From Thermoplasmata archaeon (GTDB taxonomy: Archaea; Thermoplasmatota; Thermoplasmata; Halarchaeoplasmatales; Halarchaeoplasmataceae): DNA of 56,563 bases. Positions within the stretch are counted from its first letter, which is position 1. Each line of letters starts with the position of its first letter. The notes beneath the pieces are model-generated. The model saw only the letters and a list, made by a program, of their open reading frames with translations. It searched no databases and had not been told where the DNA came from. The stretch spans positions 1 to 56,563 of the forward strand of contig PUPH01000155.1 in the NCBI GenBank assembly GCA_003553085.1, written 5' to 3'. Positions 6,677 to 44,627 of this stretch are shown here, piece after piece. The position numbers and the translations under genes are program-made.

Positions 6677-8974
6677 GTGATGATGGAAGTCCTCTCCAAG
6701 GAAGGTAGATTGGTGCTTATCGAAGGGGAAACCGGCATCGGAAAAACTGCGTTGGCCCAGCGTTTCATGGAGGTATGTAAAAGGAACGGGTTTACGGTTT
6801 TGGCCGGTAGATGCAGGCACCACGGCTATTCTCCCTACCAGCCCTTCAAAGAGGCTCTAGAAGGGTTAGATGAGAAAGAAGTGGATGATATCTATAAAGG
6901 CGTAGCCGCTTCTTTTGGAAACTCCACTACAACCTCTCATTTCAAGGATTTCGACGTAGGGGATAAGAGAGGGGCATTGTTCCTGGAAATAACCGAGAGA
7001 TTGATAGGACTATCTAAAGATGAGCCGCTGTTGATATTCTTAGACGACCTACAATGGATAGACATCTCTTCAGCAAAACTACTTCATTTCCTTAAGAGAA
7101 ATCTTGGCCAAAACAGGATATTTGTCATAGGAGCTTACCGGCTGGAAGATGTATCGACCTTTGACGAAGAGATGCCAATCAAGGATCTCTTTAGATTGCT
7201 CGATAGGGAGAGAGACATGGAGATCATCAGTCTCGATAGATTAGGAAAGCAGGGTGTCAGGAACATCATCTGTAACATACTCGATCTCGATAACGTGCCT
7301 TCTTCTTTCGTTGATCTGATCTACAAAGAATCGGAAGGAAATCCGTATTATGTTCACGAGATCATGAACTCACTCTTAGATGAAGGACTCATCGACCTTT
7401 ATTCGTTCAGATGGGATCCAAACATAGATCTATCCAAGATGATCATCCCTAAATCCATAGAATCTATCACTCGCAGAAAGGTTGATCGGTTGGATAGACC
7501 GCATAAAACGGTGCTTTCAGCCGCGGCGGTCATGGGTGATGAGTTCGATTTCGAGGTCATCGAAAAAACCCTGGACATGGACATATTTGAACTACTGGAC
7601 ATCCTTGACCAATTGATAGATCGAGGTTTCATAACCGAAGTTTCAGAGGCAGACAAAGAGTTGTACCGGTTCAATCACATACAAACGCGCTCTATCATCT
7701 ACCGACAGATGGGAAAAACGAGGAGAAGGGTGCTGCATAGGAACATCGCTCGATCTATGGATGAGGTATATTCAAAAGATCCCGATGAACATTACGCTGA
7801 GCTCAGCCTTCACTTCTTCAAGGGAGGCTTATGGAAAAAAGCATATGAGTATTCCCTAAAGGCCTCTGACGAGGCCATTTCATCCTTGGCACTGGATGAA
7901 GCGATCATGTACTTGGAACGGGCTTCTGAAAGTCTGGATCAGATGAAAGAAAAGGTCGATCTGAACTATAAAAAAGAATTGTACGACAGATTGAGCACCC
8001 TTTACATAGATGTGGATCGCTGGGACGAGGCATTGGAAGTGCTGGATCGGATCAAAGAAATAGCCAGTGAAAAAGATCTCGAGATCAGAGCCGATGCCGA
8101 ATTCAAGATCGCAAGATGCATGAGAGAGATGCAGGATTTTCATACAGCTGAAGAAAAATACACGACTGCGCTGGAGATGTATGGCACCTTAGAAGACGAA
8201 GAGGGTATCGCCAGGTGTCATCGAGGATTGGGGCACATGATGTGGAGAAGGGGGAGATTCGGATCTGCGTTGAGTCATTTTCAGAAGGCTGAAGATAAAG
8301 CAAGATCTATGGGTAATAATAAGATCCTTGCAACAGTGTACATGGATATAGGTAATACTCTGTGTCAATCCGGGGCTAGTGATGAAGGACTGGATTACTA
8401 CAAACAAAGCATCTCTATCCTGGAAGATAGTAACCATCATGGCGAACTAGCTCGAGCGTATAACAACATGGGGGACGAATACATGGACCGGGGTGAGATA
8501 AAAGAAGCCATCGACCTATTCCAAAATACTATCACCATGGGAGAGAAGGCAGGTAGTTACTTGATCGTGGGATGGGGGAGTTTCAATCTTGGACTCGCTT
8601 TGGCAAAGGGAGGAGAAATCAAGAAGGCTCTAGATCGGGTCTCATACGCCGAGAATATCTTGACAAAATTGGACCACTCGGTGGGACTTTCCTCAGCACT
8701 CAGGACCAAGGCTACGATTTACAGACTCAATGGGGAGCATCAAAAAGCTCTAGGTTCAGTTGAAAAGGCCATGGAAATACTGGTGAAGATGGACATACCT
8801 TTCAATTTAGCTCTCTGCATGCTGGAGAAAGGAAAAATACAGATGGAGCTGGATGATACAAAAAAAGCTGAAGATCTGTTCCGGGAAGCTGAAGCGGTGT
8901 TTCGGGATCTGAACACCGTACCGTTGATCTCTGAAGTAGATCGTTTGCTCCAGCGCATCCAAGATGGATCTTGA
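6677..8974 (+). CDS. AAA_16/STAND-like ATPase with C-terminal TPR repeats (paralog 1); minimal coordinates
   Basis: Walker A GETGIGKT and Walker B LLIFLDDLQWID, followed by many TPR-like repeats. The conserved N-terminal motif RRFVGREKELSIL is encoded in frame upstream (6632..6676) of the first GTG/ATG. The frame is open back to TAG 6590..6592, and an in-frame ATG lies at 6569 (see findings). Confidence 0.85.
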   Translation: MMMEVLSKEGRLVLIEGETGIGKTALAQRFMEVCKRNGFTVLAGRCRHHGYSPYQPFKEALEGLDEKEVDDIYKGVAASFGNSTTTSHFKDFDVGDKRGALFLEITERLIGLSKDEPLLIFLDDLQWIDISSAKLLHFLKRNLGQNRIFVIGAYRLEDVSTFDEEMPIKDLFRLLDRERDMEIISLDRLGKQGVRNIICNILDLDNVPSSFVDLIYKESEGNPYYVHEIMNSLLDEGLIDLYSFRWDPNIDLSKMIIPKSIESITRRKVDRLDRPHKTVLSAAAVMGDEFDFEVIEKTLDMDIFELLDILDQLIDRGFITEVSEADKELYRFNHIQTRSIIYRQMGKTRRRVLHRNIARSMDEVYSKDPDEHYAELSLHFFKGGLWKKAYEYSLKASDEAISSLALDEAIMYLERASESLDQMKEKVDLNYKKELYDRLSTLYIDVDRWDEALEVLDRIKEIASEKDLEIRADAEFKIARCMREMQDFHTAEEKYTTALEMYGTLEDEEGIARCHRGLGHMMWRRGRFGSALSHFQKAEDKARSMGNNKILATVYMDIGNTLCQSGASDEGLDYYKQSISILEDSNHHGELARAYNNMGDEYMDRGEIKEAIDLFQNTITMGEKAGSYLIVGWGSFNLGLALAKGGEIKKALDRVSYAENILTKLDHSVGLSSALRTKATIYRLNGEHQKALGSVEKAMEILVKMDIPFNLALCMLEKGKIQMELDDTKKAEDLFREAEAVFRDLNTVPLISEVDRLLQRIQDGS

Positions 8975-15886: not shown

Positions 15887-16003
15887 TTATAGATGATCGG
15901 CTTGATGAGGATCAAAACTATCGTCATCTCTTTTCAAAAAATTAGTCGCTTGTTCTAGTAGCTGAGGCTCATCGTCCACGAACAATATCTTGATCTCATT
16001 CAT
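15887..16003 (-). pseudogene. truncated response-regulator receiver domain remnant (38 codons)
   Basis: Minus strand reads MNEIKILFVDDEPQLLEQATNFLKRDDDSFDPHQADHL then stop. It matches the N-terminus of the adjacent kinase (MEGINILFVDDEPGLLDQSKVFLEREDDDF). The two share the 16-nt DNA string TCATCGTCCACGAACA. Confidence 0.55.
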
Positions 16004-16059
16004 CTCGACCAATCCGGTAAGGAAAAACATCTATAATGATATAACTAGTTTGAGGTAGT

Positions 16060-19000
16060 TTACTTATTTCTTGAACCATCATCTCTCATCAATCTTACAT
16101 CGAACCGAGCCCCACCCATCTCGGAATCTCTTATCTCTATACTACCCCCATATTTCTCGATCACCTTTTCAGCTAAAAACAACCCTAGACCGCTGCCTTT
16201 ACCACTATCCGTGGTGTAACCCTTGTTAAATATCCTCCCTTTCTTGCTGTCGGGTATCCCCTTGCCGTCGTCCTCTATCCGACAAACCATCCCGTCATCT
16301 ACCTTTTCGACGGATATCTGGATCCGGTTACACCCCGAATGCTGGATCGAGTTGTTTATTATGTTCGTCAACACTTCATGAAGAAGAGGTCCTCCTATCA
16401 CATATATATCGTCATCGACATATCTCAATCTTAGATCGATCCCCTCTCGATCCACATGGTCAGTTATAGAATCAACGACCGTCGCTACGATGGGAGTTAT
16501 CTTAACCGGTCTGATCTCTTCGATCTGGGCTCTCCTGAGCATGCCTACCTTATCGATCAGTTCGATACTGCCCTCCACACCTTTTTCAGCATTCTGAACA
16601 AAATATTCCATCTCTTCAGATAGTTCGGAAGTTTCTTCGAGCAGCTGCAGGTATCCCTGTATCACCTGTATCTTATTCTTCACATCGTGTCTGAGTAAAG
16701 TATGTAGGAATTCCTCTCGCTTCTCCGCCTCTTTCTTGTCGCTTATGTCTTCTGCCAAACATATGAACCTATCTTCTGTAATTCTTGTGGCAGAGATGCT
16801 CCAATACCCGGAGGATGCATCCTTTCTGATGAAGGGCAGTTCAACATGGATCTCTCCCTTCTCCACTAACCGAGATAAATATTTTAATACTTTATCATAG
16901 GCATCCAGTTCTACCATATCTACCATGTTCATCGATAGAAGTTCTTCGTCCGAATAACCGGTTATCTTGACCGCCGCTTCGTTGACTTCCAAAAAACTAC
17001 CTTCACTATCCATCACCAAAACACCATGTGGTGCATTGTGTATGTAGCTGCCTAATCTTTCTTCACTCTTTTTTAGTTCTTCCCGAACCCTCAATCGAGT
17101 GATGGCTTCTGAGATCATGGCTATGAACAGCTCGGCTAGTTCAAGATCAGTCTCGCTGTAATAAGCTGGAGTATAAGATAGAGCTTGGAAAACACCATGC
17201 TCCTTGATGGGGATGCTCATGGCGGACCTGAAGCGTTCATCCGTGGGCTTCGCCCTTTCAACGCCCTTTAAATCTTTCATAAGATAAGATTCCTGGGATT
17301 GATAAGTCATGCCAGCTACGCCTTCATCATCCATCATACCATGCACGTCTACAAGGTCCTCTTCGGAACTTGCCCTGATCATCAAATAATCCTCTTCATG
17401 GATGATAACACTGCATACATCAAAACCAAGGATCTCCCGTGCCTCTTCAACTGTCAGCTCGTAGAGTTCTCTTAACGTGTTCACCTGCTCGATACGGGGG
17501 GCAGCAGCATACAATCTACGTATCTTATCTTCACCCTCACGAAGTTTTTTTTCGGAGAAGAACTTGTCTCTAGCAAAACTAAGATCTCCACAGACTTCTT
17601 TTAAAAGGTCCTCTTCCTCCTCGGTTATCTCTCTATCACTCGGTAAACAAATCATCATTAGCCCTTTGATATCGTCTCCTTTGATAAAAGGTACTAAAAC
17701 AGAACTATGATCCTCTTCATGCATACATAGATCACAATCTCCACACTGTTCGTAAACACTTTCTATCGTCAGTGATTCGTTTGAATCCATGACCTCTTTC
17801 ATGCATGAAGAGATTTCTTCATACACCGATGCTCGATCAAAAAGTTTGTTTTTATGACCGCCACTGTGAGCGACCGGCCGCAGGTTTCCACGATCATCCA
17901 TTACAAAAATGGATACATCTTGGTAACCCCTTGATTCCGATAAAGTATCACAGGTTTTTTGCATCACTTCATCCAGGTCAGATCCTTTAACTATTATCTG
18001 ATTTACATCACGGATGGCATCCCTCAGAGAACGCATCTCTTCAGCACGCTCTTCCGCCTTCTTTCTATCGGATATGTCCTTCACAAATGCAAATTCGAGT
18101 TCTCTACCGTGGTGGACGATATGATTACTTATGATCTCTACAGGGAATATTTCACCATCCTTACGTTGATTCACCGATTCTTTCTTGATAGAACCTTCCA
18201 TTTTAAGATCATCCCAGAACCCCTCTCTTTCGTCAGGAAAGAATTCGGGATCTATATCCCAAATATGCATCCGTTGAAGTTCGTTCTGAGTGTAACCGAG
18301 CATCTCCGTTACCGCTTCGTTGGTATAGACAAAACGTCCTTCGGGATCCACCCAGAAAACACCTATCGATGCATTATCGACTGAATGTTTGGTGAGTTCC
18401 AATTCCCTTTCTATCTTTCTTTTACCTAGTAGTACTGAGATCTGTTGAACCATAGTTTCTATTGTATGTTTATTTTCGATCTCACTTCCATCGATGGTAA
18501 TAATATAGATACCGCCGTACAATCGGTCGTCGTTTGAAATATCGATAAAAAACACTTTGTCGATATCCGATCCTCCCATTTGATCACATATCTTCTCATT
18601 GAATATCCCGCTGACCACCTGAGAGAAATTCCCCTCGATCTCGACTAGTTCGCTGTCGAGCGAATGCCTTCGCAGGACGATCTTGAGATCTTGTAATCCT
18701 TCCTCAACGCTGGACGTTGGTTCTCCGAATCCGGCTATGCCCTTTATCTTCACCGTGTGTGGACCGTCATCCGACAACGATACTATCACTGGATTTTTTC
18801 CGTTGATCTCGTATATTTTATCTGCTAGATATTGGCAGATTTCACCACGTTCGTCAAGTTTGCCTACAGTAAATATCGCCTCATTTATATGTTTTAATTC
18901 GTCTATGCCCCTTTCTTTCCTCTCTTCTTCCCTCCTCTTATCCGTGATATCCCGTGAGATCCCAAAAACATCCTGTATCTCCCCTCTCCTCCCTCTCAAT

Positions 19001-19689
19001 GGAAAGATCACGTTCTCGATAGTCCTTACCTCTCCGTCTCCACGCTCTATTTCCACTTCTATTTCTCCATTTATCAAGTCGTCTAGGGCTATACCTTTCA
19101 ATCTTTTTCTGAATTCCTCTGTCAACAGTTCACGTGAGTCCGAGCCGATCAAATCATCCCTGGTGTATCCATGGATATCTGCAAAGGCCTGATTTACATA
19201 CTTTATCCCTCCAGAGGTATCTCTTATGTAGAAACCCTCTTGAGATCTCTCAAATATCTGTATCAACAGTTTGTTTTTCCTACTGAGTGACTTCTCCGCA
19301 TTATACCGTTCGAATTCCTGTCTGATCTCACTTGCTAAGACACCATACTGTGATCGCGGATCCCCACCTTTTTGGATGTAACGATCCGCTCCCAGGTTCA
19401 GTGCTTCCATAGCGACTTCTTCCCTACCCCTACCTGTGAATATGATAAAGGGGATGTCCTCTCTACGCTGCTTTCTTAGGATCTTTAAGAACTCCAGCCC
19501 GGTCATTTCAGGCATCTGATAGTCTGAAACGATCACGTCGAAATCATCATTTTCCAACAACTCTAAAGCATCCTTGACGTTAGTGGTTGTAACTACTCTG
19601 AAATCGTCATCCTCTCTCTCCAAGAATACCTTTGATTGGTCGAGAAGACCGGGTTCATCGTCCACGAACAGAATATTTATTCCTTCCAT
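16060..19689 (-). CDS. hybrid multisensor histidine kinase (REC-PAS-GAF-PAS-GAF-PAS-HisKA-HATPase)
   Basis: 1209 aa. REC N-terminus ILFVDDEP..DVIVSDYQMPEMTG. Several PAS modules (SRDITDKRREEE, VKDISDRKKAEE, AEDISDKKEAEK junctions) and GAF modules. H-box LLRHDVKNKIQVIQGYLQLL. ATP-binding motifs NIINNSIQHS, DDGKGIP and GSGLGLFLAEKVIEKYGG. Confidence 0.9.
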   Translation of the reverse strand: MEGINILFVDDEPGLLDQSKVFLEREDDDFRVVTTTNVKDALELLENDDFDVIVSDYQMPEMTGLEFLKILRKQRREDIPFIIFTGRGREEVAMEALNLGADRYIQKGGDPRSQYGVLASEIRQEFERYNAEKSLSRKNKLLIQIFERSQEGFYIRDTSGGIKYVNQAFADIHGYTRDDLIGSDSRELLTEEFRKRLKGIALDDLINGEIEVEIERGDGEVRTIENVIFPLRGRRGEIQDVFGISRDITDKRREEERKERGIDELKHINEAIFTVGKLDERGEICQYLADKIYEINGKNPVIVSLSDDGPHTVKIKGIAGFGEPTSSVEEGLQDLKIVLRRHSLDSELVEIEGNFSQVVSGIFNEKICDQMGGSDIDKVFFIDISNDDRLYGGIYIITIDGSEIENKHTIETMVQQISVLLGKRKIERELELTKHSVDNASIGVFWVDPEGRFVYTNEAVTEMLGYTQNELQRMHIWDIDPEFFPDEREGFWDDLKMEGSIKKESVNQRKDGEIFPVEIISNHIVHHGRELEFAFVKDISDRKKAEERAEEMRSLRDAIRDVNQIIVKGSDLDEVMQKTCDTLSESRGYQDVSIFVMDDRGNLRPVAHSGGHKNKLFDRASVYEEISSCMKEVMDSNESLTIESVYEQCGDCDLCMHEEDHSSVLVPFIKGDDIKGLMMICLPSDREITEEEEDLLKEVCGDLSFARDKFFSEKKLREGEDKIRRLYAAAPRIEQVNTLRELYELTVEEAREILGFDVCSVIIHEEDYLMIRASSEEDLVDVHGMMDDEGVAGMTYQSQESYLMKDLKGVERAKPTDERFRSAMSIPIKEHGVFQALSYTPAYYSETDLELAELFIAMISEAITRLRVREELKKSEERLGSYIHNAPHGVLVMDSEGSFLEVNEAAVKITGYSDEELLSMNMVDMVELDAYDKVLKYLSRLVEKGEIHVELPFIRKDASSGYWSISATRITEDRFICLAEDISDKKEAEKREEFLHTLLRHDVKNKIQVIQGYLQLLEETSELSEEMEYFVQNAEKGVEGSIELIDKVGMLRRAQIEEIRPVKITPIVATVVDSITDHVDREGIDLRLRYVDDDIYVIGGPLLHEVLTNIINNSIQHSGCNRIQISVEKVDDGMVCRIEDDGKGIPDSKKGRIFNKGYTTDSGKGSGLGLFLAEKVIEKYGGSIEIRDSEMGGARFDVRLMRDDGSRNK

Positions 19690-19754
19690 GACCGCCCAAC
19701 TTGGTTACTCAGTGGAAGATAGTGATTAATAGTTTTGGTCTATTTATCTACAGC

Positions 19755-20534
19755 TCATGGTCGTAGAGTGCCGAAGAATACCTGCCATGCTAGTGCTGAT
19801 TTCGCAACCAGGCTGAGGACTACATACATCCTCTCTCCGTAAAGATAGTCCTTCCACTTCCCGATTTTTTTGTATTGAAGGTACATGTTCACTGCGAACA
19901 GATTGAAGAATACCAATAATGAGAAATAGATCGCTATAACAAAGTTAGGTACATCCCCCGCCCCTGCTATTATAGAGCCTCCAAAGTATATACCTATCAC
20001 GACCCATGGAGCAGCTCCGGCTATACAGCCGATCACGTAAGAGGTCCAATCCGTCTCATCGGTGAGCTGATTGTGTTTCTCCATCAAAAGCCCAGTCAGG
20101 TTCATCACGGCTACCAAAACGAACAATGCGATCAAGAGTGCGATATCGTAGATCCCAGTCAACATGGCGATGATCACTATCATCACAGACGCACTTATCG
20201 AATACTCATACCAGCGATACGGGTTGATGTGCTTTTTAAGGTGATTTTTGTACCTCTCAAAGAGAACTGTGGATATAAGAAAATGCGCCGCTGCGGAGAT
20301 GAATAAAAACAAGGCGACCAAAGGTGCCAATTGGATCTCGACGAGAGTTTCCGTAACCGGTACGAGTTCTCGTGCCACTTCATCGAACTCCAACCATCTA
20401 GCTTCTATAGTCCATGGAGCATCTCTACTCAGAGCTACCATCAGTAGAGCTTGTAGAAAGTGTAAAACACCCATGGCTAAGTTGAACGACTTCAATCTAC
20501 CATAAACATCCTTATCTGCGGCCACCATATTCAC
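19755..20534 (-). CDS. heliorhodopsin
   Basis: 259-aa 7-TM ORF matching the heliorhodopsin family end to end by eye. Motifs: FNLAMGVLHFLQ, AAAHFLIS, YRWYEYSISASVMIVIIA, GCIAGAAPW, YLQYKKIGKW and GERMYVVLSLVAKSALAWQ. The retinal Lys codon is at 19800..19802. Confidence 0.9.
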   Translation of the reverse strand: MNMVAADKDVYGRLKSFNLAMGVLHFLQALLMVALSRDAPWTIEARWLEFDEVARELVPVTETLVEIQLAPLVALFLFISAAAHFLISTVLFERYKNHLKKHINPYRWYEYSISASVMIVIIAMLTGIYDIALLIALFVLVAVMNLTGLLMEKHNQLTDETDWTSYVIGCIAGAAPWVVIGIYFGGSIIAGAGDVPNFVIAIYFSLLVFFNLFAVNMYLQYKKIGKWKDYLYGERMYVVLSLVAKSALAWQVFFGTLRP

Positions 20535-20583
20535 CTAGATTGTATATGTCTCAGGTAGGATATATATCTTTCTAGATGAAGAT

Positions 20584-20985
20584 TCAGCGGAGGCGGTCGA
20601 GTCTTCTTCGACTCTCGTAGGGTTTGATAAAACACCTGTGATCCTCTTCTGGCATGGGGTCGAAGTCATCACGATCTACCATGCGACTTTCCAATTTGTC
20701 ACATATGTATTCGTCGCATCGTGCACAGTTATCATAACCTTTTTTCAATACACAAATCCTTACTGGGCATGTATCATCTATCAACCGGGGTTCTTCCTCT
20801 TCAGGAGTCAAACAACCGTCACAACATATATCTTCAGGAGGTATCCTAAAACCAAAGTACTTGAACCAGCCATCGCTTATCTTTATTCTATCCTCGTTAC
20901 TATTGATATTCTCCTTATAAGCGAGGCACAGGTCGCATCGGTATCCACATCGGGTTAATATTGCCTCCTTACCAGATCCGCTCAT
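20584..20985 (-). CDS. Cys-rich DUF3795-like protein
   Basis: 133 aa with RCGYRCDLCLAY, CCDGCL, CPVRIC and CARCDEYIC, the cysteine pattern typical of DUF3795. Confidence 0.65.
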   Translation of the reverse strand: MSGSGKEAILTRCGYRCDLCLAYKENINSNEDRIKISDGWFKYFGFRIPPEDICCDGCLTPEEEEPRLIDDTCPVRICVLKKGYDNCARCDEYICDKLESRMVDRDDFDPMPEEDHRCFIKPYESRRRLDRLR

Positions 20986-21024
20986 GGAGGTAAATGCACG
21001 GTTTGGTATTTAAAAATACTATGA

Positions 21025-24750: not shown

Positions 24751-24770
24751 CCTCTCGGGTTAGGTTCTCC

Positions 24771-25075
24771 GCCGGGTCTAACCGGGGCGTTCGGCGTGCC
24801 CTTATACACCGAAAGCGTCGATATGCGGGGGTGACCGCCGGGGACGGCGTAATCATCCCGTTCATGAGCCAAAACCTAACTATGAGACCTCGTCCTTCGG
24901 GATCGGAGGTGTTATCGGGGACAACCGGAGGGTTGTTTCCCTTTAGCTTCACCACGGATAACGGGCCAGGTCCGGAAGGGAGCAGTCCTACCGTGGACTA
25001 CCGATGCTCGATGGGTAGCGGGGTCGAGAAGGGTTTTGGGGTCCTCATGAGCGTGATGAGCGCCAACCTCGGTGA
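24771..25075 (+). ncRNA. archaeal signal recognition particle RNA (7S)
   Basis: The 5' GCCGGGTC (24771..24778) pairs perfectly with the 3' GACCCGGC (25064..25071). The conserved helix-8 motif GGCCAGGTCCGGAAGGGAGCAG lies at 24964..24985. The region is GC-rich, about 300 nt long, and ends in a T6 run. All ORFs predicted across it look spurious. Confidence 0.85.
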
Positions 25076-25077
25076 CC
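25072..25077 (+). terminator. oligo-T terminator after SRP RNA
   Basis: TTTTTT immediately follows the closing helix. Confidence 0.55.
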
Positions 25078-25086
25078 CGGCTTTTT

Positions 25087-25962: not shown

Positions 25963-26213
25963 CCAAGGGTAGATTGAACATACCTAGATGAATATTTTCC
26001 TCGCTAAAACTACAAAATGTTAAAATACGATGTTCGAGTTATATTTACCATTGAGGACCCGATTGCCGTAAGGGGTATATAGGATTCAGGTATAAGGGAT
26101 GATAACACCTTGATTCGTTGTATCATATACGAAGAAGTGATAAAAATGATATATGTCGTACTCTCACCGCCAAAAAACCAGTACAAAATAGTCCAAAATG
26201 GAGGTTTATATCG

Positions 26214-29200
26214 ATGACAGATAAGGTAAAGATCATGATCGTTGACGATAATCCAGACGATCGCTCTCTTGCGATAAGAGAACTGCGAAGAAATTTCAGG
26301 GACATAGAGATCATAGAGATCATCGATGCCGATGAGTTGGACGAAGCAATGGATGAGGGTGAATTCGATATAGTGATCACAGATTACCATATAAGATGGA
26401 CCGATGGATTGAAGGTTTTAAGAAGGGTTAAAGAACGTAAACCTGACTGCCCTGTGATCATGTTCACGGGCACAGGGAACGAAGAGGTGGCTGTTCAGGC
26501 GATGAAATCCGGCCTTGAAGACTACGTAGTCAAATCCCCCAAGCATTTCGTGAGACTTTCGGCATCAGTACACTCCGCACTTCAGGATATCAAAGAGCGA
26601 AGGGCGAAGAAAGAATTGGAGGATCTATACACCCGTCTTTTCGAAAGAGTTCCACTTGCGTTATATTCGGTCGATACTCATGGAAGGATACTCGCTGCAA
26701 ACACTGCGATGTTAGACCTCCTAGGGATTGATTCGAAGGATGAATTGAACGAATACAGGGCACAGGATTTTCATATAAAGGATGAAAAAAGGGATGAAGA
26801 AATATCTATATTGGATGAAAGGGGTTTGTTGAAAGGTTATGAGCTTCATCTAAAAAGAGTAGATGGAGAGGATATATGGGTGAAGGATTATGCCTATGTG
26901 ATCAGAGATGAAAAAGGTGAGATCAAATACATAGAAGGTAGCTTGGAAGATATCACAGCTATAAAAAAAGCACATCTAGAATTGAAGGAACAGAGGGATA
27001 AGATCGAACGACTTCATGAAGTGGCTCTGAAGATCTTGGACTGTACGGAGAAGCAGGAGGTCTATGAAACAACCATAGAAGCGGCTAAGAACATACTTGG
27101 ATTCAGCGCCTGTACCATACATGAGGTCGAAGACGACGAATTCGTGGTCAGGGCTACCCAAGACGGAGCTTTGGAGATAGGTAGTAGAAATCCCATCGAG
27201 GGTGTAGCTGGAAAAAGTTACAGGGAGCAGCGTTCGATATTGTTGAAAGATATATCTGAAGTTGACGATGCAAAGCCCGCCGATAAAGAATACCGTTCTG
27301 GGATATCTATACCTATCGGGGAAAAAGGTGTTTTCTTGAACATATCTACGGAAGCTGACGAATTCGACGAAGACGATCTGAAGATGGGAGAGATACTCGT
27401 TTCACACATGACCGACGCTTTGAGACGCATAGACTTCACCGATAGGATGAAGGAGAACGAAGAAAAACTTGAACAGCTGCATCGTGCAGCATCGAAGATG
27501 GAGACGATCATGTACGAAGATGAACTATACGACATCAGCTTAGAGCTAGCTTCAGATGTGCTTGACTTCCAATGGTGCACCATACACATCATCGAAGACG
27601 GGGATCTTATAGTTAAAGCTACCACACACCTTGGAACCGAAGTCGGAACTCATCTATCATTGGACGAAGGGATATACGGTAAAACATGCATGGAGAAGCG
27701 AACATTCATAGTAGATGACGTTACACAACACGAAGACGCAAAACCGTCCAGTCCGGAATTGAGATCGGTAATAAGTGTACCTCTAGGTGAGTTCGGTGAT
27801 CTTCAAGTACTATCGGATGAGGCGGGTCATTTCAATGAAACCGATAAAAAATTCGCCGAGTTACTCGCCAACCACATAACAGAGGCACTCCAGAGGATCA
27901 AGAAAAATAAGCAATTAAAGAAGAGCGAGGAAAGGTATCGCCTTATAACTGAAAATTCATACGACCTTATCGCCATGGTAGGATACGACGGGAAGTTAAC
28001 TTACGCGAATAAGGCATTTCAACGTGTTCTAGGGTATGATAATGAAGAGTTGATCGGTGAATACATTTTTGATATGCTTCACCCTGAAGATAAAGAAGGG
28101 GTTGAGGATATATTCTACCAAACCCTCGAGAAAGGGATACCACACGGGGTGGCACAATTCAAACTTAAAGATGACGATGGAAATTACCGATGGTTCGAAG
28201 CCGTGGGAAGAGGTGTAGAGGGCGAAGATCTGGTGATGGTGGTTTCCAGAGATATCGATAAAAGAAAGAAGGCTGAAATCAAAGCGATGGAAGGAAAGAA
28301 GGTGATAGAAAAACTGCATGAAACCGCTTCGAAGATGATGAACTCTAGCAATGAAGACGATATCTACAAACTCACCATAGAAGCAGCATCCAATATCCTT
28401 GATTTTGATGTTTGTACGATAGCCATCGAAGAGGATGATCACCTATTGATAAAGGAAACAACTGGCGAGGTCTATAGAGAGGGGATCATTTTAGATAAGG
28501 GTGTAGGGATTATCGGAAAGACCTACAACCAAAAAAAGGCCTTCATCATAGATAGAGTAGATGAGCTAGACGAAGCGAGACCGTATAATGAGGAATACAG
28601 ATCTGCATTGAGTGTACCATTTGGGGATATAGGGGTTTTCCAGTCCATCTCTTACACGGAGTCCGATTTCGACGAACACGATCTTGAGAGAGCCGAGATC
28701 CTGATCACACACGCATATGATGTGATCAAACGTATCCGCTATGAAAAAGAACTTGGAGAAAATCAAAAAAGATACAAGAGTATCTTTGAAAATACGGGCA
28801 CCGCTATGGTGATACTCGATCCGGAAATGGAAATCAAGATGTGTAATTTAGAGGCGCAGAATCTATTGGGGTATGATCCGGAGGAGATGACGGATAAAAA
28901 TCTAGCAGATTTTGTATTGGATAAGAAAGAATTGGAAGATCTGTTTGAGATACTCTTCGATGCAGAATATAACGGACAACATAGAGGGTTCTTAAGCATA
29001 TGTAATCGTTATGATGATGTGAAAGATATATTTCTGGTGTCTTCAGTATTACCGGACTATGACAGAATACTAGTATCTATGCTGGATGTGACTCAACAGG
29101 TCGATAACATGAAAAACCTAGAACAATCTCAAGAGTTATTTAGAGTGGCGTTCGAGGGGGCTCCGATCAGTATGCTGCTTGTGGATGAAGGGGGTATCAT

Positions 29201-29456
29201 ATTGGAAGCGAACGAGGCCATGTTGGAATTGGTCGGTATTCCTGAAGACGAGTTATTATCGATGAACCTAGAGGATTTGATCTCAAGCGGTGAAAGTATC
29301 AAAGAGATGCTATTAGATGAAGGGAAGGAAAAGATATCAAAAAAGATCTCGTTGAAGAACAAGGATGACGAAGAGATAATATGCTCGCTCACGGCGATGA
29401 CTGTTAAGCAGGAAGGGCAGGTAGACTGTATGCTAATCTATCTAAAAGAAAGTTAG
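26214..29456 (+). CDS. response-regulator receiver fused to PAS/GAF multisensor array, no recognisable output domain
   Basis: Track ORF trimmed to ATG 26214, with GGAGGT 8 nt upstream. REC motifs IMIVDDNPDD..DIVITDYHIRWTDG. Then PAS-GAF-GAF-PAS-GAF-PAS-PAS. The protein ends inside a PAS module (..DCMLIYLKES) with no HisKA/HATPase, HTH, GGDEF or HD domain seen. Confidence 0.9.
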   Translation: MTDKVKIMIVDDNPDDRSLAIRELRRNFRDIEIIEIIDADELDEAMDEGEFDIVITDYHIRWTDGLKVLRRVKERKPDCPVIMFTGTGNEEVAVQAMKSGLEDYVVKSPKHFVRLSASVHSALQDIKERRAKKELEDLYTRLFERVPLALYSVDTHGRILAANTAMLDLLGIDSKDELNEYRAQDFHIKDEKRDEEISILDERGLLKGYELHLKRVDGEDIWVKDYAYVIRDEKGEIKYIEGSLEDITAIKKAHLELKEQRDKIERLHEVALKILDCTEKQEVYETTIEAAKNILGFSACTIHEVEDDEFVVRATQDGALEIGSRNPIEGVAGKSYREQRSILLKDISEVDDAKPADKEYRSGISIPIGEKGVFLNISTEADEFDEDDLKMGEILVSHMTDALRRIDFTDRMKENEEKLEQLHRAASKMETIMYEDELYDISLELASDVLDFQWCTIHIIEDGDLIVKATTHLGTEVGTHLSLDEGIYGKTCMEKRTFIVDDVTQHEDAKPSSPELRSVISVPLGEFGDLQVLSDEAGHFNETDKKFAELLANHITEALQRIKKNKQLKKSEERYRLITENSYDLIAMVGYDGKLTYANKAFQRVLGYDNEELIGEYIFDMLHPEDKEGVEDIFYQTLEKGIPHGVAQFKLKDDDGNYRWFEAVGRGVEGEDLVMVVSRDIDKRKKAEIKAMEGKKVIEKLHETASKMMNSSNEDDIYKLTIEAASNILDFDVCTIAIEEDDHLLIKETTGEVYREGIILDKGVGIIGKTYNQKKAFIIDRVDELDEARPYNEEYRSALSVPFGDIGVFQSISYTESDFDEHDLERAEILITHAYDVIKRIRYEKELGENQKRYKSIFENTGTAMVILDPEMEIKMCNLEAQNLLGYDPEEMTDKNLADFVLDKKELEDLFEILFDAEYNGQHRGFLSICNRYDDVKDIFLVSSVLPDYDRILVSMLDVTQQVDNMKNLEQSQELFRVAFEGAPISMLLVDEGGIILEANEAMLELVGIPEDELLSMNLEDLISSGESIKEMLLDEGKEKISKKISLKNKDDEEIICSLTAMTVKQEGQVDCMLIYLKES

Positions 29457-29470
29457 GAGTTTGAGAACCG

Positions 29471-30952
29471 ATGGATGAAGAGGGATTCATAGATAGAAAT
29501 GAGGAATGTCGGATCCTCGAAAACATGGTGGAAGAGCTTGATAAAGGCAAGGGGGGTGCCGTGGTTATAACCGGAGAGGCGGGCATGGGTAAATCAACTT
29601 TGATCGAGTGGGTGATCGATAAAGCGGGAGAAAGAGGATACGATTCTTTTCAAGGCTCTTGTATCTCAAGGAACGGACTGGAGTATTATGCGTTCAAAGA
29701 GGCTTTTGAGGATATCGCATCACCAAACGAATCCATACCATCACTACCTCTTGGGATATCCATATTCTCAGACGGTAGGTCCGAGGAGGAGATCCCTTTG
29801 TTCGACTCGGAGAGGCAAAACACATTGAGAGAATCTTTCGAAGCGATCTCCAGCATGGCTTTGGAAACACCCATGATCATCATAATCGAGGAGTTGCATT
29901 GGGCGGATAAATCTACACTTTTGGCATTTAGATACCTATCGGAGCACTCTAGAGATCATCCTATCATGCTGATAGCCTCGTATAGATCCGACGAAGCCGT
30001 AGGCTATCATCTTTTGGATGAAACTATCCACCATCTAAAGCAGAAAGGGATATGTAAAGAAATAGATCTGACTTCCTTCGATGTAGATGATACAAAAGAT
30101 GCGTTGCATAGTTTGCTCGGGGAGGAGCCACCATATTGGTTCGCCCGAGGATTACAATCTAAAACCGATGGGAACCCTCTATTTATAACAGAGACCATAA
30201 AATCTATGCGATCCAAGGGAATACTGATACCTGAAGAGGGGGTTTATCCGGACATAGGATCATATCTCGATTGGCCGTCCACTGTTAAGTATATCGTGGA
30301 AAGGAAAATGGTCAAGCTGGATAAGAAAACAAAAAATCTACTAAAATACGCTAGCATACTCGGACCGTCCTTCCCATACAATCTATTGTCGGACTTCGTA
30401 GATATGGATGAGATGGAGATGTTGGATTACCTCGATACAGCGATCGAACATGGGATATTAGAGGAGATGATCAGTACGGAGGGATATCGTTTTACCCAAC
30501 AGGCAGTAAGAGACGTTCTCTACGAATCTCAATTCAAAGGAAAGAAAAGACTGCTTCATAAAAGAGCGGCAGAGTCCATCGAGAACATATACTATGGGGA
30601 TGAGACACCTTATGGTCGACTTGGTGAACATTACGAGAACGCAAAGATTTACGATAGATCATATGAGAATTACGTCAAAGCTGCGGAAACCGCTGAAGAT
30701 AACGATGAAAAAATAAGATTTTACAAAGCAGCTTTGAATGTTTCAAATAATACATCTATGGATGCTGAGGAGGTAAAAGAAGAATTTGGTAACCTGCTAC
30801 TTGAACATGGTGAAAAGTTGATCGAAGAAGGGAGTGAAGGGGATCTATTTTTAGAGGATGCGAAAGTTATCTTCAAGGATCTCGGTGACGAAGAGCGTCA
30901 TAAAAAAGCCTGCAGATTATTGGGTGAGGAGCAGGACAATATTTATAAATAA
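29471..30952 (+). CDS. AAA_16/STAND-like ATPase with short helical-repeat tail (paralog 2)
   Basis: FIDRNEECRILENMV, Walker A GEAGMGKST and Walker B MIIIIEELHWADKST. It starts 14 nt after the sensor stop, with TAGGAG 12 nt upstream of the ATG. Confidence 0.85.
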   Translation: MDEEGFIDRNEECRILENMVEELDKGKGGAVVITGEAGMGKSTLIEWVIDKAGERGYDSFQGSCISRNGLEYYAFKEAFEDIASPNESIPSLPLGISIFSDGRSEEEIPLFDSERQNTLRESFEAISSMALETPMIIIIEELHWADKSTLLAFRYLSEHSRDHPIMLIASYRSDEAVGYHLLDETIHHLKQKGICKEIDLTSFDVDDTKDALHSLLGEEPPYWFARGLQSKTDGNPLFITETIKSMRSKGILIPEEGVYPDIGSYLDWPSTVKYIVERKMVKLDKKTKNLLKYASILGPSFPYNLLSDFVDMDEMEMLDYLDTAIEHGILEEMISTEGYRFTQQAVRDVLYESQFKGKKRLLHKRAAESIENIYYGDETPYGRLGEHYENAKIYDRSYENYVKAAETAEDNDEKIRFYKAALNVSNNTSMDAEEVKEEFGNLLLEHGEKLIEEGSEGDLFLEDAKVIFKDLGDEERHKKACRLLGEEQDNIYK

Positions 30953-31005: not shown

Positions 31006-31078
31006 GCGGGTGTGGTGTAGCCTGGTATCACTTAAGCTTGCCAAGCTTGGAACTCGGGTTCAAATCCCGGCACCCGCA
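31006..31078 (+). tRNA. tRNA-Gly (GCC)
   Basis: Cloverleaf folded by hand. Acceptor GCGGGTG/CACCCGC, anticodon arm TAAGC-TTGCCAA-GCTTG, T arm TCGGG-TTCAAAT-CCCGG, discriminator A. No encoded CCA. Confidence 0.9.
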
Positions 31079-38000: not shown

Positions 38001-38347
38001 TACTCACCATCTACCTCCAGATAAGCTTTCTCTCGGAGGTACGCCACGGGTATATCTTCATCCCTGGCCCGACTTCGTAACTCCGCATCGTTCGTTATGA
38101 GTACGGCTTTCAGCTCTAGAGCGGCCTGTAGTACGCCTTCGTCCCGTTCCTTATCGACCTCGTATATTTCGTACTTGTCCGCTAACATCAAAGCGTCCTT
38201 CCTCTTCAACGTTCTTAGCTCCTTAATAACGGATGAAGGGACATATACTTCAGGATCACCGAACAGCCTTGTGATCTCGAAATCTATGTTTATGTTGAAC
38301 TGAAAGGGCATCATCAATGCGTTGGTGTCGAGCACTACTGAATTCAT
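37997..38347 (-). CDS. PIN-domain protein (Fcf1/Utp24-like archaeal family)
   Basis: VVLDTNALMMPFQF, VPSSVIKEL and LITNDAEL. It has 4-nt ATGA-type overlaps with both cysC (upstream) and ribK (downstream). Confidence 0.75.
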   Translation of the reverse strand: MNSVVLDTNALMMPFQFNINIDFEITRLFGDPEVYVPSSVIKELRTLKRKDALMLADKYEIYEVDKERDEGVLQAALELKAVLITNDAELRSRARDEDIPVAYLREKAYLEVDGEY

Positions 38348-38925
38348 GATATGTATCCTTCTTTTACTAGGTAGTCGATCACGTTCTGAACGCTTTCTTC
38401 TATGTTTTCCTTATGGGTTTCCAGCACTATCTCCGGCTCTTCCGGCTCCTCGTAGGGATCGGAAATACCTGTGAAATTTTTGATCTCTCCGTTCCTAGCC
38501 TTCTCGTACAGCCCCTTGACATCTCTTTCCTCACATACTTCCACCGGACACTTCACGAAAACTTCGATGAAGTTAGTCACCATATCTCGTGTTTTCCCCC
38601 TTCGTTCCCGATAGGGTGATATGAAGGAGGCTAAAACCGCGACACCGTTCCTGGAGAGTAACTTTGCAACGAAACTGACCCTTTCTATGTTCATATCACG
38701 GTCCTCTTTGGTAAAACCGAGGTCGGATGTTAGATGCTGTCTGACTATGTCCCCATCAAGGCGTTCCACCGATTCACCGAATTCATCTTCCAGTCTAATA
38801 GCCACCCGTTCGGCCACCGCCGACTTACCGGAACCCGACAGTCCGGTGAACCAAAGTGTGTAGCCATCCTTGATATTCTTCTTATCCCAATGCTGTTCGT
38901 TTGCAATTATGTTTTCATTAACCAT
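38344..38925 (-). CDS. cysC: adenylyl-sulfate (APS) kinase
   Basis: LWFTGLSGSGKSAVA, LDGDIVRQHLTSDLGFTKEDRDMNIERV and SFISPYR. Confidence 0.9.
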   Translation of the reverse strand: MVNENIIANEQHWDKKNIKDGYTLWFTGLSGSGKSAVAERVAIRLEDEFGESVERLDGDIVRQHLTSDLGFTKEDRDMNIERVSFVAKLLSRNGVAVLASFISPYRERRGKTRDMVTNFIEVFVKCPVEVCEERDVKGLYEKARNGEIKNFTGISDPYEEPEEPEIVLETHKENIEESVQNVIDYLVKEGYIS

Positions 38926-38944
38926 CTTATCATACCTCTCACGA

Positions 38945-39934
38945 TCACAACTTCTTGATCACTTCATCCAGTATCTCATCTTCCTGCTCGGTGGGGATCA
39001 CCATCCCCACCACATCCTCCTTACCACCTGCGGAGTGACCTTTGTTTCGAACGTATTCGATGATCTCTTTGGAGTTCGGTATAGCACCTCTGATGTACAC
39101 CTGTGTTTCCCCTGGATGAAAGGAAGGGTTCGTTACCATGACGATATCGTCGTCCGATCTGCTCCATGAGATCTTTCTTGTCACAGTAGAGATGATGTTG
39201 TATGGTGTTTTCAACCTCAGCCTGTATAGGTTCTCTTTCGATCTGGTCAGCTCTCTTTTCGACAACCGCTCGATGGTCTCTTCAAGCTTCTCAAGGTTCT
39301 CTTTCAGATCTTTTCTAGACAAGATCTCGTTGGGGTGTGTAACGTCCATCAGGAACCAGGGGAACTCCCTGATCGATTTTCTATCACCCAATTTATGAAG
39401 GGTGTCCATCATGTGAACGCATCTCAGCATGTCGTCGAATCCTACCTTAAAAGAATCCATCAATGGCTGTATAACATTCATTGCTCTTTCGTTCTCTTTC
39501 AGCTTGGTCTCTCTATCACCGAAGGCTCCTAGTATGGTAAGGATATCCGGTTCTAGCTCTAAGTATTCAGTAACCACCCAGGAACAGCTCGGATATTCTT
39601 TAGGAGTTTTTCCGGATATTATCGGGTTATGATGCATTTCTACATCGTGCCTTTCCTGTATATGGTGATCGAATATGTGGACTCCGCCGAATCCTTTCAA
39701 GAATTCGATAGAGTCCTTCGGTAAAGCCATGTCGGCAACGATGGTGTGATCCGGGTCCAACTTCCGGATCTCTTCTTTGTCTTCCTCGTTCAAGAGGTAG
39801 TTACCGATGGTTGGGGTAAAAGTTTCGTAAGTGCCTTCTAAACACCTAAGCAATATCGCTGCAGAAGACATACCATCGGCATCCCAGTGATGTAGGAGCA
39901 AACCAGGTTCCTCAGTTTCGTTCTCTTTGGCCAT
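38945..39934 (-). CDS. DHH-family phosphoesterase (candidate pAp phosphatase/nanoRNase)
   Basis: LLHHWDADGMSSAAIL (DHH motifs I-II) and HIFDHH (motif III). It sits between sat and cysC. Confidence 0.75.
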   Translation of the reverse strand: MAKENETEEPGLLLHHWDADGMSSAAILLRCLEGTYETFTPTIGNYLLNEEDKEEIRKLDPDHTIVADMALPKDSIEFLKGFGGVHIFDHHIQERHDVEMHHNPIISGKTPKEYPSCSWVVTEYLELEPDILTILGAFGDRETKLKENERAMNVIQPLMDSFKVGFDDMLRCVHMMDTLHKLGDRKSIREFPWFLMDVTHPNEILSRKDLKENLEKLEETIERLSKRELTRSKENLYRLRLKTPYNIISTVTRKISWSRSDDDIVMVTNPSFHPGETQVYIRGAIPNSKEIIEYVRNKGHSAGGKEDVVGMVIPTEQEDEILDEVIKKL

Positions 39935-39944
39935 AGTGGTTCAC

Positions 39945-41102
39945 CTACTCGACGAACTTCGGGTCCGCATCTATCACTATCCGAGCCACTTCCGGCCTCA
40001 TCATATGTTCGGGAGGTATCTTACCCTCCATAAGTATCTTCCTCATCTTGGTCCCGCTGAAGTTCTCCCGATGCTCTTCTCCATGGGGGCAAATGAAACC
40101 ATCGACGGCACCGCCGCATTTCTCGCAGTATGTGAATGATTTGAAGAAAACGGGCGTGATATCCAGGTCTGGGAACCGGTCAAATATATCCTGGGCGGCA
40201 TAGGGGCCATAGTGATCGCCTACACCTGCATGATCCCTACCCACGATGAAATGGGTGCATCCGAAGTTCTTTCGCAGGATCGCATGGAAGATGGCTTCCT
40301 TGGGCCCGGCGTATCTCATCTCGGCTTGCAATATACTCATCACCGCTCGGTTCTTTAGATAGTAGTTATCCATGAGTGTTTGATAGGAGTCCAATATCAC
40401 CTCGTCCAGGTAATCACCAGTTTTCTTCTCACCTATGATCGGGTTGATGAATATTCCGTCAACGAAGGTGAGAGCGGTCTTCTGCACGTATTCATGCCCT
40501 AGATGGGGTACGTTTCTCGTCTGAAAACCTACCACCGTTCTCCATCCCTTCTCTTTGAAGAGGACTCTTGTCTCTATCGGCCGTAGGTTGTAATTTTGAA
40601 AGCCGGAATCGGTCTCGTTTATCTGTGTTATCTCTCCACCGATGAGGAAGTCATCCATGTTTCTGACCTTTTGTACTCCAGGATGAGCCTCGTTCGTTGT
40701 ACCGTAAACGCTCTCAGCCATGTGATCCTTATCGTATCCGTAGATCTCTTCGATGGACATCATGGCGAAACTGGCACCCGTTTCGGTCTGTAGTATGATC
40801 TCCTCTTCCCGCTTCAGTTCATCAGCGGTTGCTTTGTCCACATCAAGAGTTATCGGGATGGTCCAAGGGATGTCGCTTGACAACCTATCGTGATGAAGTA
40901 CGTTCTCGAAGTCATCCCTGCAAAGGAATCCTTCTAATGGACTGTAAACACCGGAGGCGATGTTCTCTACATCCTTTCTCAATCCACCGTTCAGTTTAAG
41001 GGTGGTCATACTCTCCGCTTCTTCCAGAAGACGTTCCTTCTTACTGCTGGAAACGATCCTATTTATCAGCGTTCCGCCGTGGGGTTTTGGCATCTTGAAC
41101 AC
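39945..41102 (-). CDS. sat: sulfate adenylyltransferase (ATP sulfurylase)
   Basis: PHGGTLINR, VGFQTRNVPHLGHEY and HFIVGRDHAGVG. Confidence 0.9.
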   Translation of the reverse strand: MFKMPKPHGGTLINRIVSSSKKERLLEEAESMTTLKLNGGLRKDVENIASGVYSPLEGFLCRDDFENVLHHDRLSSDIPWTIPITLDVDKATADELKREEEIILQTETGASFAMMSIEEIYGYDKDHMAESVYGTTNEAHPGVQKVRNMDDFLIGGEITQINETDSGFQNYNLRPIETRVLFKEKGWRTVVGFQTRNVPHLGHEYVQKTALTFVDGIFINPIIGEKKTGDYLDEVILDSYQTLMDNYYLKNRAVMSILQAEMRYAGPKEAIFHAILRKNFGCTHFIVGRDHAGVGDHYGPYAAQDIFDRFPDLDITPVFFKSFTYCEKCGGAVDGFICPHGEEHRENFSGTKMRKILMEGKIPPEHMMRPEVARIVIDADPKFVE

Positions 41103-41366: not shown

Positions 41367-41459
41367 ACTATCATTAAGATGTTTTATTTATAGTTTTTGT
41401 TCAGCCCTATGTTATCTGCACATACATTTTATTACTATCCACCACACTTGTATATCACG

Positions 41460-44400: not shown

Positions 44401-44627
44401 AGGCGAAAGAGGAATTCGAAGCCGCGAGATCGATGTTGAGGGCGGCGGGCGATGATGTCGATCTGAGCAGGTTGTTATACGAATACGGTGTTCTCTGGAT
44501 GAGACAAGGTGAAAAGGTAGAGGCGTCAAGGTATCTTGAAGAGGCTTTGGAGATACAACAGAAGATGGGATTGAAGAGTGATGCTGAGAAGACGAAAGGG
44601 GCTATCTCGGATCTCGACGAGATATAA
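41460..44627 (+). CDS. AAA_16/STAND-like ATPase with inserted roadblock/longin-like module and long TPR array (paralog 3)
   Basis: Track ORF trimmed to ATG 41460 (MVLHTEHELPLVGREEE). Walker A GEAGIGKT and Walker B LMLLLEDLHWADES are separated by about 220 aa, versus about 95 aa in paralogs 1 and 2. At least 12 TPR-like repeats follow in the C-terminal half. Confidence 0.85.
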   Translation: MVLHTEHELPLVGREEETSLFSKQIQRTLEGCGGTLSVSGEAGIGKTRLVREFVRQAVDNGFKVVDGAADKHSFKPFQMLVNALQEESSEPILREEESTSFSEIFAVNDAGMLLATARPEDEDEIDGDIFAGMLSAIQNFVKDSFDRSGESKAGLGRLEYGDMKILIEHGKSIYVAAVIKGKEHPEMKHTLGRTVKQIEREYAEMLEDWSGDMEEMACVQDKISSLSMIKYSVRKDFEGVKLENERLRIADDVLELLKDMSRERPLMLLLEDLHWADESSLFVMDYISRNIGDHGVLTVCTRRPEEGEAAERTVKGLDEDGLITLMKLQKLTADDLKLLVDELYTPNDFPEDLIERLSKECQGNPFFVIEMLKQMEQEGHMGIIDGTYKMVTETFTIPSSVEEVVYRRLELLDPESIELVEYASCEGGVIDRRIPKWFDRVSDINYTMQNLMDSGILVQDADRYAFSHAIFRDVIYTSLSRWWKNNYHRSLGAFYETNYHDDLSEVYYELARHFSNTNQHEKAHDYSYKAGEKAESTLAAEQAIDFYQIAYDVLEHLHLPEGKKERRCDLLDRIGDMKGLLGDYKEAKGYYLHGLELSPPDTTKALLHRKLGNVFMVIGEYDRGIQECDTALALLESDDPEVMRVNRVKGRTYMRKGDYDDAKHLLEEGLSLAKDMGDDGEIAEIKHNMGTVEWYKGNYDDALTHLEEALEIRKEIQDHRGMARTSTNIGIVHYSKGELNKSIEYYRDALTSFEKIGDRLNTASAFGNIGMAFLKLGRLDESLEYFNHCKDTFEMVGDKGSAATALNNIALVYEKKGDIENALIFHKKAYSNREKIGDKMGMAMSLVNIGGAQGDYGDVDMAIDNLNKSIDMYINIGDKEGVLSPMNNLGSIFRKEGNIDKALEYHKEAADIAESVGSIDRACEIYFELVQDEIYTQDVEKAMVYAHRVFEHAEKTGSDKLLGYGHQALGMVYREMEKWDEAKEEFEAARSMLRAAGDDVDLSRLLYEYGVLWMRQGEKVEASRYLEEALEIQQKMGLKSDAEKTKGAISDLDEI

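Follow-up and report, generated by a model that had tools for sequence, protein, structure and literature searches.

Heliorhodopsins (HeRs) are widespread photoreceptors whose downstream signalling is largely undefined, and to our knowledge a direct link between a HeR and a histidine kinase has been proposed from gene neighbourhoods and never shown. Does a HeR gene followed immediately, on the same strand, by the gene for a soluble histidine kinase then mark a light-signalling unit? The question is raised by a 56,563-nt stretch of Thermoplasmata archaeon DNA (assembly GCA_003553085.1, contig PUPH01000155.1, positions 1 to 56,563; hereafter the window), in which genes for a Cys-rich DUF3795 protein, a HeR and a REC-PAS-GAF kinase follow one another on the reverse strand. 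A first-pass annotation of the sequence had identified these three genes and put forward the kinase, and possibly the Cys-rich protein, as a light-signalling output. All three open reading frames (ORFs) lie where that annotation placed them, and the domain architecture it gave for the two neighbours of HeR is fully supported by Pfam. Comparison with other HeR loci suggests, on balance, that the HeR-kinase juxtaposition is incidental and specific to one lineage, the HeR having a partner encoded elsewhere, on which it acts in the manner of related HeRs.

Identity of the heliorhodopsin and its source population

The ORF at 19755..20534 (reverse strand) was matched over its whole length by the Pfam family PF18761 (E = 2e-100; 335.6 bits where 26.7 is the cutoff; spanning profile positions 1 to 242, the whole model) and by the NCBIfam equivalog NF038020, 'heliorhodopsin HeR' (357.4 bits against a cutoff of 100; profile positions 1-244 of 244). 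The best match among solved structures was TaHeR (6IS6; E = 8e-93, ~70% identity across residues 11-259), followed by 48C12 (6SU3; E = 2e-55), the ORF product aligning over its full length to both. The original heliorhodopsin call is fully supported. The Schiff-base Lys, K245 (48C12 K241), lies within SLVAKSALAWQ and aligns to the Lys of transmembrane helix 7 (TM7) in both structures, its codon falling exactly at the previously annotated position (19800..19802, reverse strand). Structure alignment also located, on the same strand, the TM3 counterion Glu, E110 (48C12 E107; codon 20205..20207), and the conserved His residues H25 (48C12 H23; codon 20460..20462) and H84 (48C12 H80; codon 20283..20285). 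All four motifs quoted at first pass are present. When the HeR was aligned with nine relatives, E110, H25 and H84 (E108, H23 and H82 if numbered from the ATG start discussed below) were invariant. Judged from its sequence, the ORF is a genuine full-length heliorhodopsin and a new member of the TaHeR-like group.

The frame and coordinates of the annotated ORF stand, and only its GTG start needs revision. Public gene calls begin the gene at ATG 20528, which gives a product of 257 aa; this exact product occurs on 12 public contigs, and no public record of the GTG-start product was found. The GTG at 20534 forms part of AGGTGA, a motif of Shine-Dalgarno type that precedes ATG 20528 by 2 nt (20528..20540, reverse strand). 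Because this motif contains the GTG, and because only the ATG product is on record, the gene probably begins at ATG 20528.

From the end-to-end alignment, at ~70% identity, to TaHeR, whose structure has been solved, we infer seven TM helices and an inverted topology with a cytoplasmic N-terminus. TaHeR, from Thermoplasmatales archaeon SG8-52-1 (6IS6, 7U55, 7CLJ), shares the same Lys, Glu and two His residues, and its first and third intracellular loops (ICL1 and ICL3) are near-identical to those of the window HeR. The two proteins differ in the TM5-TM6 loop, which is longer by five inserted residues in the window HeR (GGSIIAGAG region). The lineage of the window HeR is haloalkaline, and its gene neighbourhood is another one, the TaHeR-like sub-clade sampled having topoisomerase I after HeR.

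The 12 contigs encoding the exact HeR protein were assembled from metagenomes of Kulunda soda-lake sediment (SL_*KL_010_SED, SRR490134 and SRR490150, among others) or belong to three metagenome-assembled genomes (MAGs; GCA_019594325.1, GCA_019594345.1 and GCA_019594275.1). Gene order (TrmO, DUF3795, HeR, kinase) was the same on every such contig of sufficient length, and the DUF3795-HeR-kinase trio was restricted to contigs with the 100%-identical HeR protein. Since that protein does not vary among them, these contigs represent one population and cannot be counted as independent evidence for the arrangement. The nearest distinct HeRs, at 76-83% identity, belong to Thermoplasmata MAGs from saline and soda settings, including 'Candidatus Haladaptatiplasma halalkaliphilum'.

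Neighbourhood conservation across heliorhodopsin loci

To place the trio among other HeR neighbourhoods, we compared 167 distinct loci (80 each from species-representative genomes and from metagenomes, plus the 7 contigs that carry the closest HeRs), using tblastn with 12 proteins encoded around HeR in the window. Within this set, 59 loci were of archaeal type (HeR at least 57% identical, range 57-83%), and for these the ORFs within 4 kb of HeR were clustered. A kinase or DUF3795 gene adjoined HeR in none of the 59, the sisters at 76-83% identity included, and no signalling gene recurred within 4 kb of HeR among them. Across all 167 loci, relatives of the window's neighbouring genes were never found next to HeR beyond the window's own population. 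The neighbourhood tabulation suggested at first pass thus gives a negative answer, in that neither REC-PAS-GAF kinases nor DUF3795 recur beside HeR in related genomes, which is the first of the outcomes named at first pass as arguing against a functional link.

The kinase itself has no full-length orthologue among 5.8 billion proteins, where only domain-level paralogues were detected; the best non-self match scored 767 bits against 2670 for self, and the best local alignment reached 57% identity over 22% of the query. Matches comprised many REC-PAS-GAF proteins of haloalkaliphilic Thermoplasmatota (Saliniplasma, Natronoplasma) and of Methanonatronarchaeum, often several per contig, and because these were all paralogues, their gene contexts were unusable for the neighbourhood test. 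With adjacency missing from every archaeal-type locus and the kinase lacking an orthologue, the proposal that the kinase or DUF3795 protein is a light-signalling output is not borne out among related genomes. What this non-conservation indicates is that the HeR clade does not need the kinase; it does not show that the kinase goes unused in this one species.

No neighbourhood genes were syntenic in the nearest relatives. The closest approach was L177 (HeR 71% identical), with a TrmO gene 53% identical to that of the window 6 kb upstream of HeR and a DUF3795 paralogue (27% identical) 3.4 kb downstream. Recovery of the ancestral locus by way of TrmO failed, as TrmO is 60-69% identical across phyla and its best matches stood in unrelated contexts. 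Each archaeal HeR sub-clade instead has its own housekeeping neighbours, such as topoisomerase I, purE and guaA. The sister HeRs (76-83%) have in common a mutually conserved context unlike that of the window, with pyruvate:ferredoxin oxidoreductase genes, an undecaprenyl-diphosphate synthase gene and a divergent CN-hydrolase gene upstream, in the order CN_hydrolase (reverse), HeR (forward), a small hypothetical gene (reverse) and then an ECF-type transporter or pyrBI.

The small hypothetical gene of the sister clade (HeRs 78-83% identical) is convergent with HeR and lies 10-57 nt past it in seven loci (L001:937-1428, L002:929-1438, L004:10796-11623, L005:10793-11320, L171:862-1359 and L172/L173). 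Its product, ~165-175 aa long (called at 275 aa in L004), matches no Pfam family, and the gene is the sole conserved immediate HeR neighbour in that clade, absent from the window. Eight loci of the TaHeR-like sub-clade (L006, L007, L019, L102, L108, L109, L112 and L129) have a topoisomerase I gene (~673 aa) on the HeR strand at a constant distance of 117-131 nt downstream, with purE, guaA and a GATase gene upstream, and this co-directional pair probably reflects conserved, vertical synteny.

Among bacteria, only two loci had a kinase as the direct neighbour of HeR, namely L038, from a Saccharibacteria MAG, and L161, from a metagenome contig of the same layout. In both, REC and HATPase-type kinase sequences (L038:8262-9919, L161:202-1859) share the HeR strand and end ~80 nt before the HeR gene. 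No bacterial locus sampled shows a clearer HeR-kinase adjacency, though it is not common to other Saccharibacteria loci. Looser associations were seen in L164, where a kinase domain lies ~700 nt upstream of HeR, and in L139 and L141, with PAS-GAF kinases 2.7-5 kb away. Overall, immediate HeR-kinase adjacency amounted to ~2% of the 167 loci which, given that kinase-type genes make up ~1-2% of prokaryotic genes, is about the level expected by chance. The further idea that this kinase family is so dense that adjacency becomes trivial was only partly upheld, as two members and a relic occur in the window but none was found in ~423 kb of related Thermoplasmata loci, where a single isolated REC match was the only trace. 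With the family sparse in related DNA, the argument from chance rests mainly on the large number of HeR genomes surveyed.

The cytoplasmic face of the HeR also speaks for an incidental pairing. In the alignment with nine relatives, ICL1 (FERYKNHLKKHINPYRWYEYS) and ICL2 (MEKHNQLTDETDW) were almost unchanged relative to sisters that lack the kinase, and ICL3 (LQYKKIGKWKDYLYGER) was identical to that of four of the five closest sisters, the fifth differing by a single I/V change. No co-adaptation of the loops to a new partner was seen in this alignment, and near-constancy of all three loops argues for a partner or function common to the HeR clade.

Transcription signals, the kinase and alternative readings

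Signals around the trio were surveyed by scoring archaeal TATA-like octamers 20-45 nt upstream of starts, and oligo-T runs in co-directional gaps, over the called genes of the genome. This scheme is ad hoc and crude; a sigma-70 promoter and terminator scanner was set aside because the host is an archaeon. A perfect TATA-like octamer, TTTAAATA (21007..21014, reverse strand), starts 29 nt upstream of the DUF3795 ATG and is overlapped by a T5 run just past the TrmO stop (21012..21016, reverse strand), so that one element at 21007..21016 is a candidate promoter for the trio and a candidate terminator for TrmO. At the other border, a T5 tract (16023..16027, reverse strand) 33-37 nt past the kinase stop is a candidate archaeal terminator closing the trio, in a gap that also holds a 7/8 TATA match. 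Both internal gaps have the lengths first reported. The DUF3795-HeR gap (20535..20583, reverse strand; 49 nt if counted as far as the GTG and 55 nt if counted as far as the ATG) contains at best a 6/8 TATA match and T-runs of up to 2, with AGGTGA preceding ATG 20528, and the 65-nt HeR-kinase gap (19690..19754, reverse strand) likewise offers a 6/8 match, at about -42, and T-runs of up to 2. The earlier caution that TATA-like boxes in both gaps might separate the genes therefore holds in so far as such matches exist, but at 6/8 and without an oligo-T tract the concern is weaker than stated. Signals at the borders together with internal gaps that have no strong TATA or oligo-T tract fit a leaderless DUF3795-HeR-kinase transcript with a Shine-Dalgarno-like motif before HeR, and co-transcription of the three genes is plausible. 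However, nine of 19 comparable co-directional gaps in the genome likewise lack both promoter and terminator signals, which makes the operon call a weak one.

The kinase gene (16060..19689, reverse strand) encodes a soluble multisensor histidine kinase of 1209 aa, in which Pfam delimits an N-terminal REC domain (Response_reg, 85.4 bits; residues 6-111, 19357..19674), a PAS domain (residues 144-248, 18946..19260), a region without domain assignment, a second PAS (residues 443-541, 18067..18363), two GAF domains (residues 571-706, 17572..17979; residues 738-863, 17101..17478) and a third PAS (residues 884-989, 16723..17040), all on the reverse strand as are the catalytic modules that follow. These are a DHp region (residues 986-1048, 16546..16734), matched by SPOB_a at 30.4 bits against a cutoff of 28.1 and by HisKA below threshold at 18.9 bits, and HATPase_c (residues 1102-1200, 16090..16386; 80.1 bits). 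The H-box, LLRHDVKNK, is intact and the REC pocket is complete (D10, D11, D55, T85 and K106). No TM segment was detected in the kinase, the top 19-residue Kyte-Doolittle mean being 1.33.

The first GAF domain contains CGDCDLC, a CxxCxxC motif formed by C649, C652 and C655 (residues 649-655, 17725..17745, reverse strand) and followed by HEEDH. This is a possible metal, Fe-S or redox-sensing site, reminiscent of MsmS and other archaeal kinases whose GAF sensors depend on cysteines. In Methanosarcina acetivorans, MsmS and RdmS are soluble kinases with PAS-GAF repeats, a SpoOB_a/H_kinase_dim-type domain, HATPase_c and GAF cysteines. At the level of domain order, the window kinase resembles both in its progression from PAS-GAF repeats through an SPOB_a-type DHp to HATPase_c, and in its GAF cysteines; it is unlike them in having an N-terminal REC and in showing no evidence of heme binding.

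Directly past the kinase stop lies a 38-codon REC-domain fragment beginning MNEIKILFVDDEPQLLEQATNFLKRDDDSF (15887..16003, reverse strand), called publicly as a 38-aa gene and 63% identical to kinase residues 1-30. It looks like the relic of a duplicated or recombined signalling gene, reduced to a truncated REC N-terminus. A second member of the signalling family occurs 6.4 kb away on the forward strand (26118..29456), with REC, four PAS and three GAF matches but neither a kinase domain nor any other output domain; the next gene, directly after it, encodes an AAA_16 ATPase (29471..30952, forward strand). Relic and second REC-PAS-GAF gene together suggest local duplication and decay of signalling genes, and point to a family that turns over locally around the kinase.

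A signalling role for adjacency would have precedent in the sensory rhodopsins SRI and SRII of haloarchaea, whose genes adjoin those of their signalling partners, the Htr transducers, and which feed a His-kinase pathway. The Htr proteins are membrane proteins that touch the rhodopsin through TM helices and recruit CheA. In contrast, the kinase described here has no TM segment and HeR has inverted topology; lacking such a segment, the kinase could make no Htr-style contact with HeR inside the membrane.

The trio might instead be a species-specific light-signalling operon, in which photoactivation would alter the conformation of the HeR cytoplasmic loops, and these would dock the soluble kinase, at REC or at the first PAS, modulate its autophosphorylation and so carry light into a phosphorelay. 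Several points favour such an operon and correspondingly weigh against an incidental juxtaposition. The genes share a strand across short gaps, with TATA and T5 signals at the borders and none inside, and the H-box, ATP-binding domain and REC pocket of the kinase are intact. Adjacency by chance within this single genome would be expected at a few percent only. Non-conservation of the kinase is moreover a weak test, as the neighbours are non-syntenic and the lineage has no sequenced close relative. The HeR-histidine-kinase hypothesis has itself been in the literature, with Thermoplasmatota named, since Bulzu et al. (2021, mSphere, PMC8612252), who found HisKA, PAS, GAF and HATPase_c genes within 10 kb of HeRs in several phyla, Thermoplasmatota included, and two-component domains statistically enriched near HeRs in 240 MAGs, with no demonstrated interaction. 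Furthermore, experimentally confirmed HeR partners have been adjacent-gene products; for example, the actinobacterial AbHeR binds glutamine synthetase (GS), encoded by the adjacent gene, with a Kd of 6 uM, basic intracellular loops being the proposed site of contact (Cho et al. 2022, PLoS Biol, PMC9529153).

Neither of these cases matches the present locus throughout. As in the neighbourhoods of Bulzu et al., a PAS/GAF/HisKA/HATPase_c kinase lies close to HeR and the same inference, of HeR feeding a two-component system, can be drawn, but here the kinase is the immediate same-strand downstream gene, in one species only, and is not conserved. As with AbHeR and GS, a HeR and a soluble cytoplasmic protein are encoded side by side on one strand, but HeRs with an adjacent GS gene cluster together in the HeR tree (PMC9529153) and binding has been measured, whereas the adjacent pair described here occurs in a single species. 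Against a dedicated operon stand the absence of the pairing from every related genome sampled, a kinase without orthologue, a HeR cytoplasmic surface unchanged from that of sisters lacking the kinase, the lack of any cognate output regulator encoded nearby, the near-chance frequency of adjacency across the 167 loci and the many other co-directional gaps equally devoid of signals. We regard such an operon as possible but rather unlikely, and retain incidental juxtaposition as the preferred reading.

Attention could shift from the kinase to the DUF3795 gene (20584..20985, reverse strand; matched by PF12675 over positions 2-82 of the 83-position profile, with 56.5 bits where 22.6 is the cutoff), with its product as the HeR-linked component, a metal- or Fe-S-binding cytoplasmic partner in the role proposed for the zinc ribbon of Znf-HeRs. 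The gene is promoter-proximal in the putative unit, 55 nt from the HeR ATG, and its product has 12 Cys in 133 aa. Thermoplasmatales Znf-HeRs carry an N-terminal zinc ribbon (PMC8612252), and HeRs with such a CxxC...CxxC extension occur among close relatives, whilst the window HeR (257-259 aa) has no N-terminal zinc-ribbon extension. We considered DUF3795 as a detached Znf-HeR domain, a candidate rejected because no similarity was detectable to the extensions of P0171, P0174, P0204 and P0219, which themselves gave only sub-threshold zinc-ribbon matches. The DUF3795 gene downstream of HeR in L177 might be taken in support, but that copy is only distantly similar and does not adjoin HeR, and DUF3795 was next to HeR in no other locus. 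A DUF3795-HeR partnership consequently appears improbable.

It is also conceivable that the HeR is a silent passenger, with no retinal supply, no holoprotein and hence a neighbourhood devoid of functional meaning. In agreement with the first-pass annotation, precomputed Pfam annotation of the genes in the 56.5-kb window included no carotenoid- or retinal-biosynthesis families, and the organism comes from sediment samples. However, the window is a small part of the genome, the rest of which may include retinal genes, and scavenging is another source of retinal. The gene is intact, its hallmark residues are kept and the 12 contigs, which come from several samples, all encode a 100%-identical protein, which leaves silence of the HeR very improbable.

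Beyond DUF3795 on its upstream side lie TrmO, an adenosine-specific kinase homologue and phosphoglycerate mutase, and downstream of the histidine kinase are a VanZ-like gene, a zinc-ribbon membrane protein and AIM24. Rfam identified an archaeal signal recognition particle (SRP) RNA (24770..25082, forward strand; 201 bits), which confirms the domain of life, and one tRNA (31006..31078, forward strand), both at a distance from the trio, and no structured RNA within the HeR gaps or close to them. The forward strand holds three genes for AAA_16 (STAND-like) NTPases (6677..8974, 41397..44627 and that at 29471..30952 noted above), of which two also encode long TPR arrays; for 56 kb, so many large proteins of signalling or scaffold type are unusual. 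A sulfate-activation cluster (38344..41102, reverse strand) comprises ATP sulfurylase, a DHH-family phosphoesterase and APS kinase.

Implications for heliorhodopsin signalling

We propose that, in one soda-lake Thermoplasmata species, an intact TaHeR-type HeR gene came through genome rearrangement to lie with a DUF3795 gene on one side and the gene for a fast-evolving soluble kinase on the other. All three could well share a transcript from a promoter before DUF3795, and their juxtaposition would most likely be an accident of gene order in a local signalling-gene cluster rather than a dedicated phototransduction module. By analogy with its close relatives, the HeR is most likely a retinal-binding, slow-photocycle, non-pumping light sensor; the target of its conserved basic cytoplasmic loops would be a soluble, clade-wide partner encoded elsewhere. 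For the kinase, the likeliest role is to integrate signals from the cytoplasm, taken up by the PAS and GAF modules and by its own N-terminal receiver, and the CxxCxxC motif of one GAF domain is suggestive of a redox signal, a metal or a small molecule as input.

That the HeR has been newly wired to the REC-PAS-GAF kinase, perhaps with the Cys-rich DUF3795 protein as a cofactor protein, in a tricistronic light-sensing operon is unlikely. If true, it would be the first concrete archaeal pathway from a HeR to a two-component system, and an instance of a photoreceptor recruiting a partner de novo without change to its cytoplasmic surface. Found in one soda-lake species only, the pairing is at best a candidate case, particular to that species, of an idea already in print. 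On present evidence it represents one more lineage-specific HeR neighbourhood, and adjacency of this kind, unaccompanied by conservation, should not be read as function; were the pair functional, it would offer a compact construct with which the HeR-kinase hypothesis could be tested in vitro.

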